A DNA stretch of 52,653 nt from Ignavibacteria bacterium (GTDB taxonomy: Bacteria > Elusimicrobiota > Endomicrobiia > PHAN01), in contig JBGFRZ010000053.1 in the NCBI GenBank assembly GCA_041694835.1, positions 1 through 52,653 of the forward strand, written 5' to 3'. Of the stretch, positions 9,490 to 37,220 are shown piece after piece. Both the position numbers and the translations under genes were made by a program. Numbering within the stretch: the stretch's first letter is position 1; every line of letters starts with the position of its first letter. A model generated the notes under the pieces. The model saw nothing but the letters and a program-made list of their open reading frames with translations. It was not told the DNA's origin and ran no database searches.

Positions 9490-9766
9490 GAGAGCGTTGA
9501 AAAACCCCGCCGTGGAGCAGGAATAGGACGCAGATTTTCGCAGATGAGTTTATAGTTGCTTTAATCTGCGTTTATCAAAGTTGTTTCTGCGTTCATCTGC
9601 GTTCAATTATTTTTTAGGACGCAGATTTACAGGATTATCGCAGATTAAAAACTTTACCACGAAATCACGAAAATTAGAAATCACAAAATTCTTTACAAGT
9701 ATTTTCGTGTTTTCGCGCTTTCGTGGTTCAAATCTTTTTTCATCTGCGTTCATCTGCGTTCAAAAT
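9490..9766. repeat. Composite hairpin repeat / MITE-like element
   Basis: Starts GAGAGCGTTGAAAAAC; nested ACGCAGAT..ATCTGCGT and CCACGAAA..TTTCGTGG arms; near-identical inverted copy at ~17597-17779 lacking one inner hairpin. Confidence 0.85.
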
Positions 9767-17559: not shown

Positions 17560-17779
17560 AAGACCGTCGAAAAACTCATCAACCGTTTTTTTATTTTTGG
17601 ACGCAGATAGACGCAGATGAAAAAAGATTTGAACCACGAAAGCGCAAAAACACGAAAATACTTGTAAAGAATTTTGTGATTTCTAATTTTCGTGATTTCG
17701 CGGCAAAGTTTTTAATCTGCGATAATCCTGTAAATCTGCGTCCTATTTCTACTCCACGGCTGGGTTTTTCAGCGCTCTC
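17560..17779. mobile_element. Mosaic MITE-like element
   Basis: Ends AAGACCGTCGAAAAAC / GTTTTTCAGCGCTCTC; interior is an inverted copy of 9490-9766 and shares an arm with ~15340-15400. Confidence 0.75.
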
Positions 17780-18639: not shown

Positions 18640-18951
18640 TGACGCTTTGCTAAAACATCACCACAGAGGCATTCACCCCGGTAGAAAGGATTTTTCTAAC
18701 GGGGCAAGGAGAGCACAGAGAAGAAAACTTTACCACGAAAGCGCGAAAGTCAGAAATCACGAAAAAAATAATCCCCCTATTTCCCCCTTTATTAAAGGGG
18801 GAAATAGGGGGAAGCGAAGTGGGGGATTTACAGTGACTTGTGCACTTGTGCAGACCAAGGTCTGCAACTACAAAACTTGTGCTTTGTTGCAAAAAATTTC
18901 TTACACATTTCTTTGTGTCTTGTGTGGTAGAAGAACTTTTTCAATAATCTC
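18640..18951. repeat. Mosaic repeat element forming the valS 5' leader
   Basis: Left part is an inverted match to ~32160-32295; right part is an inverted match to 15151-~15295. Confidence 0.8.
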
Positions 18952-18964
18952 AAAATAAAAAATT

Positions 18965-21900
18965 ATGGAGATACCTAAAGCATACGACCCGCAGTCAGCA
19001 GAAGAGCCGATATATCAATTTTGGCTAAAAAAAAATTTATTTAAGTCAGTTCCAACTCAAACAAAAAAATCTTTCACCATTGTAATTCCTCCCCCGAATG
19101 TTACGGGCTCTCTTCATATGGGTCACGCCCTAAATAACACTCTTCAGGATGCGGTGATAAGATATAAAAAACTCTGCGGTTTTAACACTTGTTGGGTGCC
19201 AGGCACCGACCACGGCGGCATCGCAACGCAGAATGTCGTCGAGAAAATACTTCTTTCTGAAGGAAAAAACAAAAATGAACTGGGTCGCGAAAAATTTCTT
19301 GAAAAAATGTGGGAGTGGAAAAACGAATCCGGCGAGCAGATATTAAATCAGTTAAAAAAACTCGGATGCGCTCTTGACTGGGATAGAACAAGATTTACGC
19401 TCGACGCTCTTTGCTCCCGCGCCGTCAACGAGGCGTTTGTCAGATTATATCAAAAAGGACTCATATACAGAGGCAGGCGACTTGTGAACTGGTGCCCGCG
19501 TTGTATGACGGCTCTTTCGGACATAGAAGTTGAACACGAGGAAGAAATCGGCAAGTTGTGGCACATTAAGTATCCACTCAAAAACCAGAGAACAGAGGAC
19601 AGGGGACAGGGGACAGAGAAGAGAGAAGAGAGAAGAGAGAAATATACGGGAAGCGGGAAGAGTAAAGAGTTTAAAGCCGTTCACCCTTTCCGCTTTACGC
19701 TTTCCGCTTTACGGCATTTTATTCTCTCACCTCTCGCCAGTCGCCAGCCACGAGCCACGAGTCACGAGCCACGAGCCACCAGCCACCAGCCACCATCCAC
19801 TGATTTTGTTGTTGTGGCGACGACACGCCCCGAAACAATGCTGGGAGACACCGCCGTTGCAGTCCATCCTGATGACGAAAGATATAAACACCTCATCGGT
19901 GAAAAAATTATTTTGCCGTTAGTTGAGCGCGAAATCCCGATTATCGCCGACAATGCGGTTGACATTACTTTTGGCACAGGCGCCGTCAAGGTTACTCCCG
20001 CCCACGACCCGTCTGATTTTGAGATAGGTATGAGGCATAATTTGGAAAAAATCGTGGTGATTGATTACGACGGAAAAATGCTCAACGCGGGGAAATACAC
20101 ATCTCAGGACAGATACCATGCAAGAAAAGAGATATTAAAAAATTTACAAGAGGCGGGGCTTCTGCTTGAAACCGTCGAACATCCACATTCCGTCGGAGTT
20201 TGTTATAGATGTTCTACGACGATAGAGCCGCTCATTTCCGAGCAGTGGTTTCTCGATGTTAAAGAGATGTCAGGTGCCGCGGTCCTGGCATCAAAAAACA
20301 GAAAAATAAAATTTTACCCCGCATCATGGGAAAAACCTTATTTGCTTTGGCTGGAAAACTTGAAGGACTGGTGCATTTCTCGTCAGATTTGGTGGGGACA
20401 CCGCATCCCCGTTTGGTATTGCGCCAAACAAGAGAACAGAGGTCAGAGGTCAGAGGTTGGTCACCAGTTGTCAGTTGACAGTTGCCAGTCACCAATCACC
20501 AGCCACCAGCCACTTGAGACGTGTCCGCCAATAGTTTCCGCCGAAAAGCCCGAAAAATGTCCTCACTGCGGTGGAACTGATTTGAAACAGGACGAAGATG
20601 TGTTGGACACCTGGTTTTCGTCGGCATTGTGGCCGTTTTCGGTCTTCGCATGGCCGGAAAATCAGAGGACAGAGGACAGAGGACAGGGGACAGAGAACAG
20701 GGGACAGAGGACAGAGGTCAGAGGAGAGAGGACAGAGAACAGAGGACAGAGAAGAGAGAAGAGAGAAGAGAGAAGAGAGAAATATACGGGAAGCGGGAAG
20801 AGTAAAGAGTTTAAAGCCGTTCACCCTTTCCGCTTTCCGCTTTCCGCTTTACGGCATTTTATTCTCTCAACTCTGGTCTCTGACTTATCTTACTACTATC
20901 CCACATCTGTTCTTGTTACGGGGCACGAGATACTTTATTTGTGGGTTGCAAGAATGGTTCAGTTTGGAATTGAATTTATGGGGGAAGTTCCGTTCCGCGA
21001 GGTCTACATACACGGAATAGTCCGTGATAAATTCGGAAAAAAAATGTCAAAATCGCTCGGCAATGTCGTCGACCCGCTTGACATAATGAAAAAATACGGC
21101 ACGGATGCTTTAAGATTTGCGATGATTTCCTCCGCCTCCGCCGGTCGTGACATTCAGATTTCTGAGGATTCGTTCGTCGGAGCCAGAAATTTCGCCAACA
21201 AACTCTACAACGCCGCAAGGTTTGTTTTGCTCAATCTTCAAAGTGTCGATTTGGAAAATATCGACATAGAGGGAGAAAAACCCGACAAAACTGACAGATG
21301 GCTCATTTACGAACTCAGCATTTTGCTTACAGAGATAAAAACTAACTATGAAAATTACGAACTTGATAAATCTTCTCGGGCGATATACGACTTCACATGG
21401 TCTAAATACTGCGACTGGTACATAGAATTTTCGAAGGAGCGTCTTTACGGAGATGACCTATCCGCAAAGAAAACCGCCAGCAAAGTACTTGTTAATGTGC
21501 TAATCGCCCTTCTCAAGGTCTTACATCCAATAATGCCGTTTATCACTGAGACGCTCTGGCAGAGTTTAAGAGAGTCGTTGAAGGGGGTAGCGATTGAAGA
21601 AAGCATAATGCTCTCAAGTTTTCCGCAAAAGACACTCCCTTCTTCGTGGCGTCAGGATTCCGAAAATGTGAACACATTAATCGATTTAATTTCGAAAATA
21701 CGCTCCGTAAGAGAGGAAATGAGAGTGCCCTCTTCGGTCGTTGTAAATCTTGTTCTCAAAACCGACAAAAAAACATTGTTCGAACGGATAGAAAAAGATA
21801 GCCACTATATAAGGAAACTCGCGAGAGTTGGGGATATCACCGCCTTAAAAGTCAACCCGACGGAATGCGCCTACGGAGTAGTTTCGGGAATAGAGTTTTT

Positions 21901-22120
21901 CATACCCCTTAAGGGTCTGGTAGACATTAAAAAAGAAAAACAACGGCTTGAGCAGGAGTTGGAAGGGTTGAAAAAATTTCGTTCGACCATTCAGGTGAAA
22001 TTAAAAAACGAAAACTTTGTCAAAAAGGCTCCGCCAGCGGAAGTGGAAAACACAAAAAACAAACTCTCTGACACCGAATCGAAAATGGAAAAAATCGCCG
22101 AAAATCTCAAATATCTTTAG
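18965..22120 (+). CDS. valS: Valine--tRNA ligase with three in-frame repeat-derived insertions
   Basis: PPPNVTGSLHMGHA, VATTRPETMLGD, DWCISRQIWWGHRIP, DTWFSS, KMSKS, C-terminal coiled coil; 1051 aa vs the usual ~880 aa. Confidence 0.96.
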   Translation: MEIPKAYDPQSAEEPIYQFWLKKNLFKSVPTQTKKSFTIVIPPPNVTGSLHMGHALNNTLQDAVIRYKKLCGFNTCWVPGTDHGGIATQNVVEKILLSEGKNKNELGREKFLEKMWEWKNESGEQILNQLKKLGCALDWDRTRFTLDALCSRAVNEAFVRLYQKGLIYRGRRLVNWCPRCMTALSDIEVEHEEEIGKLWHIKYPLKNQRTEDRGQGTEKREERREKYTGSGKSKEFKAVHPFRFTLSALRHFILSPLASRQPRATSHEPRATSHQPPSTDFVVVATTRPETMLGDTAVAVHPDDERYKHLIGEKIILPLVEREIPIIADNAVDITFGTGAVKVTPAHDPSDFEIGMRHNLEKIVVIDYDGKMLNAGKYTSQDRYHARKEILKNLQEAGLLLETVEHPHSVGVCYRCSTTIEPLISEQWFLDVKEMSGAAVLASKNRKIKFYPASWEKPYLLWLENLKDWCISRQIWWGHRIPVWYCAKQENRGQRSEVGHQLSVDSCQSPITSHQPLETCPPIVSAEKPEKCPHCGGTDLKQDEDVLDTWFSSALWPFSVFAWPENQRTEDRGQGTENRGQRTEVRGERTENRGQRREKREERREKYTGSGKSKEFKAVHPFRFPLSALRHFILSTLVSDLSYYYPTSVLVTGHEILYLWVARMVQFGIEFMGEVPFREVYIHGIVRDKFGKKMSKSLGNVVDPLDIMKKYGTDALRFAMISSASAGRDIQISEDSFVGARNFANKLYNAARFVLLNLQSVDLENIDIEGEKPDKTDRWLIYELSILLTEIKTNYENYELDKSSRAIYDFTWSKYCDWYIEFSKERLYGDDLSAKKTASKVLVNVLIALLKVLHPIMPFITETLWQSLRESLKGVAIEESIMLSSFPQKTLPSSWRQDSENVNTLIDLISKIRSVREEMRVPSSVVVNLVLKTDKKTLFERIEKDSHYIRKLARVGDITALKVNPTECAYGVVSGIEFFIPLKGLVDIKKEKQRLEQELEGLKKFRSTIQVKLKNENFVKKAPPAEVENTKNKLSDTESKMEKIAENLKYL
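19583..19801 (+). repeat. valS insert 1 (heptamer-repeat cassette, ~70 aa)
   Basis: CAGAGGA, GAGAGAA, CGGGAAG, CTTT(A/C)CG, CGAGCCA, CCAGCCA tandem units between YPLK and DFVVVATTRPE. Confidence 0.9.
20429..20515 (+). repeat. valS insert 2 (heptamer repeats, ~29 aa)
   Basis: CAGAGGT, CAGTTGN, CCAGCCA units between IPVWYC and CPPIVS. Confidence 0.85.
20660..20881 (+). repeat. valS insert 3 (heptamer-repeat cassette, ~72 aa)
   Basis: CAGAGGA array plus the cassette shared with insert 1, between WPE and DLSYYYPTS. Confidence 0.9.
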
Positions 22121-22128
22121 AAGGAGAA

Positions 22129-22240
22129 GTAGCGAGTAGATAGTAGATAGGAAATTGTGGTTTGAAAAAGTTTGCAGTTGCCCCATCTACTCGCTACCAT
22201 CTACCATCTACTATCTACTATTCACTATTTGCTATTCGCT
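22129..22240. repeat. Heptamer-arm hairpin repeat
   Basis: GTAGCGAGTAGAT pairs with ATCTACTCGCTAC; followed by C(C/T)ATCTA and CTATTNG tandem units. Confidence 0.8.
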
Positions 22241-22975: not shown

Positions 22976-23066
22976 CCACTGATAGACACGGAATGCACTG
23001 AAAAAAATTGTGTTAATCTGTTAAAAAAACCAATTAGACGCAGATAGACGCAGATAAAACAGGATT
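22976..23066. repeat. Partial ~9-nt-arm repeat (ACGCAGAT family)
   Basis: GACGCAGATAGACGCAGAT identical to the arm near 17600. Confidence 0.55.
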
Positions 23067-23712: not shown

Positions 23713-23803
23713 AGAAAGTGGCTGGTGACTGGAGGAACGAGCCACGAGCCACAAGCGAACTCCCAAACTCCACAACTCTGCAATTTCCAAACTCTTTAAC
23801 TCC
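23704..23803. repeat. Nested short-tandem-repeat hairpin overlapping the rdgB stop
   Basis: GAGTTAAAGA..TCTTTAACTC outer arm; GTGGCTGG..CGAGCCAC inner arm. Confidence 0.7.
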
Positions 23804-23808
23804 CCAAT

Positions 23809-23886
23809 TGGGGTGGCTGACGGGATTTGAACCCGCGACCTTCCGGGCCACAGCCGGACGCTCTAAACCGCTGAGCTACAACCACC
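23809..23886 (-). tRNA. tRNA-His(GUG)
   Basis: G-1, GTGGTTG/CAGCCAC acceptor, C73, encoded CCA, TCCGG-CT-GTG-GC-CCGGA anticodon arm. Confidence 0.96.
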
Positions 23887-23891
23887 GTTAA

Positions 23892-24236
23892 AACAGTAAT
23901 CGGTAATCGGTAATCAGTAAGACAGAGGACAGAGGTCAGAGACGAGTTCAGAACCGATACAGGATGCAGGAGCACAAGGGCACAAGAACACAAGTCAGGG
24001 CAGCAGAGCAGCGGTGGCTCGTGGCTCGTTCCTCCAGTCACCATCCACTATTCGCTATTTGCTATTCACTATACGCTATTCTCTCACCCCTCACCCCCCA
24101 TCTCTCATCTCTATTCCCTATTGCCTATTGCTATTTACTATTCGCCGAACATTTTGCGGGATATAATCCCGCCGCTACTCTTACGCACCGTAAGACGGTG
24201 CCCCTACCTACTACCTGCTACATACTACATACTATA
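23892..24236. repeat. Array of many different short tandem-repeat modules plus two GTAG-type REPs
   Basis: GGTAATC, CAGAGG(A/T), GCACAAG, GTGGCTC, CTATTCG, TCTCATC, CTATTGC, CTACCTA, CTACATA units in series. Confidence 0.85.
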
Positions 24237-24280
24237 TTGAACGCGTCCGACAGGAATCGAACCTGTAACCCTCTGCTTAG

Positions 24281-24880: not shown

Positions 24881-24996
24881 ACGGGAAGCGGAAAGCGGGA
24901 AGAGTTTTAAACCCGGCAACAATGTGCGATTGCAATTGTATCGCTACAACGATAAGATTATAAGGGGTGCCTACGGGGTTAGAGGGGGCGGAGGGG
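24881..24996. repeat. Repeat cluster: CGGGAAG arm plus REP-like palindrome
   Basis: ACGGGAAGCGGAAAGCGGGAAGAGT resembles the valS cassette arm; GCGATTGCAATTGTATCGCTAC palindrome. Confidence 0.6.
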
Positions 24997-36865: not shown

Positions 36866-37220
36866 TGTCATTGCGAGAACCGCTCAACATCAGGGGTGAC
36901 AATTTTTGTAAATCCCCTTGAGCGGAGTTTACCCCGCACAGTTATTGTGCGGGGCTTCCCGCCAAATCCCCCCTCCCCCCCTTTATTAAAGTGGGGAAGC
37001 GAAGCTTTTCTAGATCTTCTTCATTTACGAATTCACCTATATTCCCCATTTTGTAAAGGGGGATTGAGGGGGATTTTTCGTGCTCGTGGTTGCAATGAGA
37101 GTAGGGTAGCATTATCAAGGACTAACTTAACAGAACAGTAGTATGTAGGGAAACTATTTACCCCCTACAATTTGCCACTAACGATAAACTACCAGCCACG
37201 AGCAACGAGTCACGGGCAAT
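36866..37220. repeat. Composite hairpin repeat region
   Basis: TGTCATTGCGAG..TTGCAATGA ends; CCCCGCACA..TGTGCGGGG; AAATCCCCC..GGGGGATTT; GTAGGG..CCCTAC; CGAGCCA-type units. Confidence 0.7.

Follow-up and report, generated by a model that had tools for sequence, protein, structure and literature searches.

We describe here a valyl-tRNA synthetase (ValRS) gene, valS (positions 18965-22120, plus strand), that carries three blocks of tandem heptamers within its reading frame. The gene lies in an Ignavibacteria bacterium (assembly GCA_041694835.1; GTDB lineage Elusimicrobiota, Endomicrobiia, PHAN01), on contig JBGFRZ010000053.1, and the window analysed is a stretch of 52,653 nucleotides of that contig. 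The three blocks are likely to be copies or fragments of a lineage-specific, dispersed family of heptamer-lattice elements, which would be translated as disordered loops of the enzyme in the manner of the Rickettsia palindromic elements (RPEs). We favour the reading that such a family has colonised genes in frame, much as RPEs do, and the family is new as far as our literature search goes: that search, with supplements outside its scope, found no paper on heptamer-array elements standing in frame in essential genes.

The 1051-amino acid open reading frame (ORF) of valS contains the full domain set of a ValRS and no other domain (Pfam tRNA-synt_1, Anticodon_1 and Val_tRNA-synt_C), and its product matches the Thermus thermophilus enzyme (1GAX) with an E-value of 2.5e-222 in phmmer. 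The homology to 1GAX is broken into four blocks (query residues 1-205, 280-487, 525-570 and 639-1049), and the period-7 arrays reported by Tandem Repeats Finder coincide with the three gaps between them. Using an alignment with 19 ValRS genes from the genomes of relatives to set the boundaries, we place insert 1 at 19586-19801 (plus strand, 216 nt, residues 208-279), insert 2 at 20432-20515 (plus strand, 84 nt, residues 490-517) and insert 3 at 20663-20881 (plus strand, 219 nt, residues 567-639), which amount to 210, 66 and 213 nt extra, respectively, over the closest orthologue. The initial annotation, which had recognised the three blocks from the letters alone, started them at 19583, 20429 and 20660; apart from this small shift its description was accurate, including the statement that they keep frame without stops and that their removal (about 170 residues) would leave an enzyme of standard length. 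All three lengths are multiples of three and no in-frame stop is present; without the 173 inserted residues the product would measure 878 amino acids, against 882-943 for the ValRS of relatives. A second, intact valS, which would have opened the way to reading this copy as silent, was absent from a search of the organism's own draft genome (89 contigs, 97.2% complete).

Each insert is periodic almost from end to end. In insert 1, CAGAGGA/GAGAGAA arrays lead into a hairpin core, followed by ACGAGCC/ACCAGCC arrays, with period-7 arrays at 19586-19641, 19686-19713 and 19737-19800. Insert 3 has a long CAGAGGA/GAGAGAA array, the same type of core and a short right arm (arrays at 20663-20781 and 20826-20850), while insert 2 consists of exactly 12 heptamers, or 28 codons, in which CAGAGGT, CAGTTGN, CAGTCAC and CAGCCAC units succeed one another without a core (arrays at 20437-20457 and 20465-20513). 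The units named by Tandem Repeats Finder across the inserts are CAGAGGA, AGAGAAG, CTTTCCG, AGCCACG and CCAGCCA, in agreement with the initial annotation. The 7-nt words keep a single register through each insert, and neighbouring units differ by single bases. The identity of bases seven positions apart (lag-7 identity) is 0.71, 0.71 and 0.72 in inserts 1 to 3, far above chance, as compared with 0.25-0.26 in the three remaining stretches of valS. On the plus strand each insert is open in two of the three frames, on the minus strand in none, and the encoded heptads are charged or polar, of the QRTEDRG, EKREERR and ATSHEPR types.

Copying is indicated by the hairpin core. The copies in insert 1 (19631-19734, plus strand) and insert 3 (20771-20875, plus strand) are 98.1% identical over 104 nt, and both fold as hairpins with RNA z-scores of -2.2 and -2.6. 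The core is about 105 nt long, its arms are themselves built of heptamers, with CGGGAAG-type units facing CTTTCCG-type units, and its lag-7 identity taken alone is 0.56-0.57. We aligned 18 copies from 14 contigs of this genome, typically with CAGAGGA-type arrays to the left and CTCTCAC/CTCTGTC-type arrays to the right. Because the core is 98% identical in inserts 1 and 3 and is present at about 16 other loci as well, it must have been copied; and since the other copies are only about 75-94% identical to those in valS, no copy is closer to insert 1 than that in insert 3, and vice versa. Many copies have the same order of modules, in which a purine-rich array comes first and an 8-mer array second, ahead of GGCTCGT, ACCAGCC and CTATTCG units in turn. 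The sequence ACCATCCACT, with which insert 1 closes, is also the end of one module in an intergenic mosaic, at 24040-24049. When 122 genomes of the class, this one included, were searched with a 146-nt query, a match over most of its length was found only in this genome; five others gave matches of 25-60 nt, for the most part within the arrays of the query, and in the two genomes of the sister genus brief segments of the core are matched with 73-96% identity. In Rfam, the region 19400-21000 gave only sub-threshold matches to generic miRNA-precursor hairpin models, also at the core of insert 3.

The same units recur outside genes in the window, at all four of the places that had been pointed out beforehand (23720, 23930, 24881 and 37195). 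ACGAGCC units occur at 23737-23756 and GACAGAG units at 23921-23941 (Tandem Repeats Finder), both within a mosaic of the family at 23717-24240 in which ACGAGCC, GTAATCG and GACAGAG units, an 8-mer array and GTGGCTC, CTATTCG, TCTCTCA and CTACATA units adjoin. An isolated fragment of the left arm of the core, made of CGGGAAG-type units, lies at approximately 24881-24903, and an isolated ACGAGCC-type run at approximately 37191-37217. Stop-bearing units, such as AGTAGAT (22135-22150) and GTAATCG (23896-23920), are intergenic only; their absence from the inserts had also been remarked on correctly, and is true by construction for an open frame.

Where the inserts stand in the enzyme points to loops that accept additional sequence. 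Site 1 falls between 1GAX residues 204 and 208, where the chain passes from the catalytic body to the editing domain, and isolated editing-domain chains (1WK9, 1WKA) align from residue 279 of the valS product onward. Site 2 lies within 1GAX residues 418-431 and site 3 at residue 474. The 19-relative alignment and the comparison with 1GAX agree on all three points of insertion. Aligning orthologues, as had been proposed for finding empty sites, was informative: the closest one, in a genome of the same family and a sister genus (G001), is 66% identical, the highest identity among the relatives in our scan of genome contigs, and it is empty at all three sites. Three more distant relatives (L024, L025, L026) show length differences of their own at all three sites, none of them periodic. 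In the second member of the sister genus (G002; locus L009), valS has an extra segment at site 1 (residues 206-221), whose DNA is a five-unit array of period 8 (AAGGTAGA type; lag-8 identity 0.73). Arrays of short period thus entered the site-1 loop independently in the two lineages. Since length varies in relatives at the very sites that carry the inserts, these loops can be taken as tolerant of insertion.

The valS gene is the most heavily hit case of a general phenomenon in this genome (1.91 Mb, 42.5% G+C). Tandem Repeats Finder returned 800 rows of period 7 genome-wide, as compared with 48 of period 6, 403 of period 8, 151 of period 9 and 198 of period 10. Merging the period-7 rows yields a family of 742 arrays with 181 distinct units, covering 26.2 kb or 1.37% of the genome. 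The density of period-7 rows is 41.9 per 100 kb here versus 7.0 in a 384-kb sample of G001, a difference of about sixfold; the samples of other genomes gave 7.7 (G002), 3.9 (G009), 6.7 (G010), 5.1 (G022) and 17.5 (G025) per 100 kb. We placed the 594 arrays of at least 21 nt against simple, non-overlapping ORFs of at least 100 amino acids: 253 are intergenic (43% of the total, non-coding sequence being 13% of the genome), 54 lie over the end of an ORF, 185 in the first 300 nt of one, and 102 deeper inside 55 ORFs. The last figure is an upper bound, because some of the arrays called inside ORFs are chance periodicities of ordinary coding sequence, as at C84 63455, C86 25687, C27 14219 and C67 38493. 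Pairing of arrays in inverted orientation is modestly enriched (35 pairs versus 19.5 +/- 4.6 in 200 shuffles, with a maximum of 31).

Other housekeeping genes carry in-frame arrays of the same family, as anticipated by the suggestion that insert-type peptides be sought elsewhere in the proteome. Inserts of the family type split Pfam domains in a GltX/GlnS-type synthetase (65 residues), a PALP enzyme (48), a histidine kinase at its HATPase_c domain (43), a metalloenzyme-family protein (60), a NuoF-like protein (35), a HisF/A-type protein (90) and CarB (24). LeuRS and IleRS contain short arrays of the family that encode heptads of the PLSPIPY or QRTADRG type. Altogether, the heptamer-lattice family is found in at least 10 conserved enzymes of this uncultured bacterium with a small genome, and has entered its sole valS three times.

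The frame and the orientation of these insertions bear on whether they are translated. For the former, a set of 883 ORFs, drawn from 1.18 Mb of G001, was compared with this genome; it yielded 647 orthologue-like pairs and 11 segments that are extra in this genome. Ten of these overlap a period-7 array by at least 14 nt; the eleventh, on contig C30, was flagged as a frameshift and its repeats are not of period 7. Eight segments are in frame and open. Three are the valS inserts; gltX, the PALP gene, the kinase gene, lpxK and argJ have one apiece, those of lpxK and argJ being short and less clearly members of the family. The other three looked like gene breaks, and two of these were set aside as artefacts. 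At C42 9388-9458, the second match reads as conserved DNA resembling the 5' end of tmRNA downstream of the gene, and at C30 7788-7896 the query from G001 is probably an antisense ORF across two genes. With these dropped, eight of nine insertions are in frame and open, where about one third or less would be expected of unselected insertions (p ~0.001 against 1/3); counted by gene, the figure is six of seven (p ~0.007). For orientation, we considered internal arrays, more than 300 nt inside an ORF, whose unit is free of stops on both strands, and excluded, as possible 5' untranslated sequence, the 185 located no more than 300 nt from an ORF start. Of 29 such internal arrays, 25 are oriented so as to encode the more hydrophilic peptide; among the 20 genes concerned, 16 are hydrophilic throughout and two hydrophobic throughout. 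Elsewhere the split is 32 hydrophilic versus 22 hydrophobic among co-directional intergenic arrays and 44 versus 30 at ORF starts (Fisher p = 0.013 and 0.009, respectively). Such a bias makes sense only if the arrays are translated. We therefore infer translation, and, judging from sequence, the valS inserts are most likely translated and tolerated as passengers, rather than being processed or serving as functional modules.

A history that would account for these observations begins after the split from the sister genus, when elements of the family would have been copied into valS. Either insert 1 or insert 3 was probably the source of the other, or gene conversion may have homogenised both, and the arrays would later have been altered by gain and loss of units. 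To persist, an insert would have needed a length that is a multiple of three, units without a stop trinucleotide on the coding strand, an orientation encoding charged or polar heptads (QRTEDRG, ATSHEPR type), and a location in one of the three ValRS loops of variable length. Having met these demands, the inserts would be transcribed and translated together with valS and carried as disordered surface loops, as RPEs are. The arithmetic of the heptamer may have helped. Three 7-nt units make seven codons, and all three frames of such an array give the same cyclic heptapeptide, so a unit free of stops should be open in every frame; this would explain why stop-bearing units are missing from the inserts. 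By the same reasoning, slippage by one unit within valS would be a lethal frameshift, so only changes of 21 nt would survive there.

Several observations weigh against this account. The core peptide includes a hydrophobic stretch, FRFPLSALRHFILS, which is not obviously loop-like. An AlphaFold2 model built from the 19-sequence alignment is poor (mean pLDDT 60, pTM 0.52); it gives the inserts pLDDT values of 24-36 and almost no secondary structure, and much of the catalytic domain is also low, so the low confidence in the inserts is weak evidence for disorder. Insertion is not always harmless, as an element at C73 9011-9250 interrupts a gene with two stops. In this case (C73 8675-10090), the 240-nt element parts a VanZ domain from a C-terminal domain, the two being fused as one ORF in G001; the element holds an ATG that could serve as a restart codon, and a repeat-mediated split of the gene is likely. 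The assembly and the expression of the inserts have internal consistency as their support, and array copy numbers taken from a short-read assembly may be wrong. No near-identical metagenome contig was found, the best ValRS relatives among metagenome contigs being 36-56% identical, and a search with the insert-1 region (residues 200-285) of a 5.8-billion-protein library, its 'longer' and 'shorter' length bands excepted, yielded no protein but that of the window. The arrays counted in the frame and orientation tests are not all independent, and the p values are indicative only. Finally, no link to a transposase, no terminal inverted repeats and, at the valS junctions, no consistent target-site duplication were found.

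This last point qualifies the proposal in the initial annotation that a mobile repeat system repeatedly writes new peptides into tolerant loops. It is supported by a dispersed, copied family (a core of 98% identity, about 18 copies), by loops that vary in length and are empty in the closest orthologue, and by in-frame arrays in other housekeeping genes; the word 'mobile' goes further than these findings do. The heptamer ATCCACT at 19572-19578 and again at 19795-19801 could be mistaken for a duplicated target; it is part of the element instead, since it also ends the intergenic copy at 24043-24049. The arms of the element are heptamer arrays of unequal length. The only IS200/RAYT-like Y1_Tnp transposase of the genome (C41 8757-9467; L288 1468-2178; 236 amino acids with an HYH motif) has no period-7 array within its 3.3-kb locus, that is, 1.1-1.5 kb to either side. 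One rve match and a weak DDE_Tnp_1 match make up the other candidate enzymes, neither linked to the repeats, and no reverse transcriptase (RVT_1) was found in the draft genome.

Growth in place would do without insertion altogether: short seeds in tolerant loops would have been expanded by replication slippage in 7-nt steps. The single 7-nt register of whole inserts, with units drifting by single bases, fits this, as do the 12 exact heptamers of the coreless insert 2, the lack of a target-site duplication and the attribution of heptamer repeats to polymerase slippage in the excerpts of PMC4679880 and PMC4692102. However, slippage does not place a 105-nt core at 98% identity in both insert 1 and insert 3 and at about 16 other loci, nor does it give an intergenic copy the same module order and the same terminal ACCATCCACT. 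As an explanation of all three inserts it is thus unlikely, although it likely explains changes in unit number after arrival, and possibly insert 2 as well. A further possibility is that the segments are artefacts of a metagenome-assembled genome, in which repeat-bearing reads were mis-threaded into valS. A draft of 89 contigs with dispersed repeats invites the concern; yet three such errors would each have had to produce a multiple of three, no stops, the same orientation, placement in a variable loop and a continuing frame. The same pattern also appears in many genes on other contigs, and contig ends are not enriched in arrays (24 of 178 versus about 21 expected), leaving an assembly error with very little probability.

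Two other explanations accept the inserts as real and assign them a different fate. In the first, the finished enzyme would lack the inserts and have the standard length, owing to RNA excision, bypassing of the gene 60 or mitochondrial 'byp' kind, or protein splicing. The folding of the core into a hairpin (RNA z-scores as given above), the standard length of ValRS without inserts and the stops in the C73 element, inside what is a single gene in G001, can all be cited in its favour. However, removal would make the constraints on frame, stops and orientation (lengths of 0 mod 3, eight of nine open insertions, 25 of 29 orientations) unnecessary, and these same observations speak against the RNA-level removal or skipping that the initial annotation had offered as its alternative. 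That annotation had also seen no intein or intron features, and we agree: no Hint domain is present in ValRS, the insert peptides have no Pfam match, no group I or II intron model of Rfam matches, and the only hits in the window at the gathering score are two tRNAs. Bypassing of the T4 gene 60 type finds no footing either: the codons that flank each insert are not a matching take-off and landing pair, there is no stop after the junction, and the inserts are open in frame. The C73 case is better seen as an ordinary gene split, with a VanZ protein and a separate C-terminal domain that has a possible restart. Removal is accordingly very unlikely. Alternatively, the inserts may have been recruited for a function, for example as charged appendages rich in arginine, glutamate and lysine that bind tRNA or partners, as in eukaryotic synthetases. 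The heptads are indeed highly charged (QRTEDRG, EKREERR), arrays of the family occur in four class I synthetases, and the orientation bias speaks of selection at the protein level. Nevertheless, the same peptides occur in unrelated enzymes, the inserts are absent from the sister genus, none of the 121 other genomes of the class has a full-length core, conservation is lacking, and selection against harmful orientations suffices to produce the bias. We regard recruitment as highly improbable.

In function, the nearest known parallel is with RPEs, which, in the excerpts of PMC10969869, are short palindromic repeats standing in frame in dozens of unrelated metabolic genes in ways compatible with the fold. 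The valS-type element is likewise a palindromic dispersed repeat found in frame in unrelated coding genes; on the basis of those excerpts, both are repeats of about 100-220 nt that add a peptide to unrelated housekeeping proteins, and neither has a known transposase. In contrast to the fixed consensus and conserved peptide of the RPEs described there, the elements here are mosaics of variable heptamer arrays around a 7-periodic core. In addition, the lineage is different, three copies occupy one essential gene, and the likeness is a functional one, set by description.

In the build of their sequence, the elements come closest to the heptanucleotide simple sequence repeats (SSRs) of bacteria. 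As far as the excerpts of PMC4679880 and PMC4692102 go, heptamers are the most abundant class of long SSR in many bacteria and are ascribed to polymerase slippage; examples are the cyanobacterial STRR sequences, GGGAATC in Xanthomonas and Nostoc, and TAACTGA in Beggiatoaceae. According to the same excerpts, such repeats are mainly intergenic in Xanthomonas, Nostoc, Beggiatoaceae and Microcystis and under-represented in coding sequence. The shared features, within what those sources cover, are tandem 7-nt units, several kinds adjoining and sometimes in inverted pairs, over-representation in a lineage and variation in length between relatives; the excess of period 7 is plain here (800 rows, against 48 of period 6 and 151 of period 9). 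The differences are that up to 102 arrays lie deep in 55 ORFs, essential genes included, and that a non-array core has been copied along with them.

Two classes of mobilised palindromes also come to mind. Repetitive extragenic palindromes (REPs) and REPINs, which RAYT (Y1) transposases mobilise (PMC3116915), are short, palindromic, dispersed and lineage-specific, and a single-copy Y1_Tnp gene is present here as well. REPs are extragenic; here the Y1_Tnp gene has no flanking heptamer arrays, and no conserved REP-like head was established. The miniature inverted-repeat transposable elements known as MITEs are small, non-autonomous, dispersed and hairpin-forming, and can make in-frame fusions (excerpts of PMC10969869). 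The elements in this genome differ from MITEs in having neither terminal inverted repeats that match a transposase-bearing parent nor a consistent target-site duplication. Plasmodium offers a eukaryotic parallel: its housekeeping enzymes, aminoacyl-tRNA synthetases among them, carry low-complexity, hydrophilic, repeat-derived inserts in their surface loops; these arise by expansion of codon repeats (period 3) under AT bias, with no dispersed copied element.

In-frame colonisation of housekeeping genes by repeats has been known mainly from Rickettsia, and heptamer repeats mainly as intergenic curiosities; here the two are combined. If confirmed, the case would be a second and independent instance, with a different mechanism, of proteins gaining segments from repeats; it would map, in nature, the loops of class I synthetases that tolerate insertion and offer a tractable setting in which to ask why 7-nt periodicity arises. 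It would also warn annotation pipelines that low-complexity segments in essential genes can be genuine. A bolder and rather doubtful idea is that the heptamer-lattice element is a selfish repeat of a kind not described before, built and propagated, core included, in a 7-nt register that makes it compatible with coding in any phase, through a dedicated heptamer-register copying process instead of ordinary slippage and recombination. Essential genes (four aminoacyl-tRNA synthetases, carB and the HisF/A-type gene, among others) would then act as safe havens in which imprecise loss is lethal. If true, this would amount to a route by which a proteome acquires new peptide segments, and possibly extended N-termini for many exported proteins.

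The starts of ORFs present a separate picture. Many genes whose products are exported or belong to the envelope have composite arrays directly upstream, open and in frame with them (C62 11592-33139 and about 40 other ORF starts), the products including OmpA, PorP/SprF, M6 peptidase, fn3 and CBM48 proteins. When read through, these arrays encode a charged stretch, then a hydrophobic stretch of the IRYSLFA type, then 'LYA'. One reading is that crude ORF calling has run through 5' untranslated regions; another is that repeats have built N-termini resembling signal peptides. As FliG also has such an array, the former reading is favoured for some of them. The genome also contains giant ORFs of 8223, 6363 and 5423 amino acids (C66 3-24671, C89 1-19090 and C77 9955-26223), two of which run to contig ends.

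Within the window, the spacer between valS and rph (22126-22237) forms a hairpin with AGTAGAT units opposite ATCTACT units, after which CTATTCG-type units extend to the ribosome-binding site of rph; it resembles a terminator or a REP-like structure made of the heptamer family. The tRNA-His gene (23809-23885, minus strand) sits between two 36-nt arms of heptamer units (23717-23752 and 24014-24049), which are 97% complementary and 261 nt apart; the arms might pair within a precursor transcript, or a cruciform might form. Besides the heptamers, a further group of repeats with short periods, at 9586-9762, 17600-17700, 18734-18852 and 23035-23056, has a period of 8 (CACGAAAT) or 10 (TTCATCTGCG / GACGCAGATA), and the repeats of these two periods in the window often come in inverted pairs.

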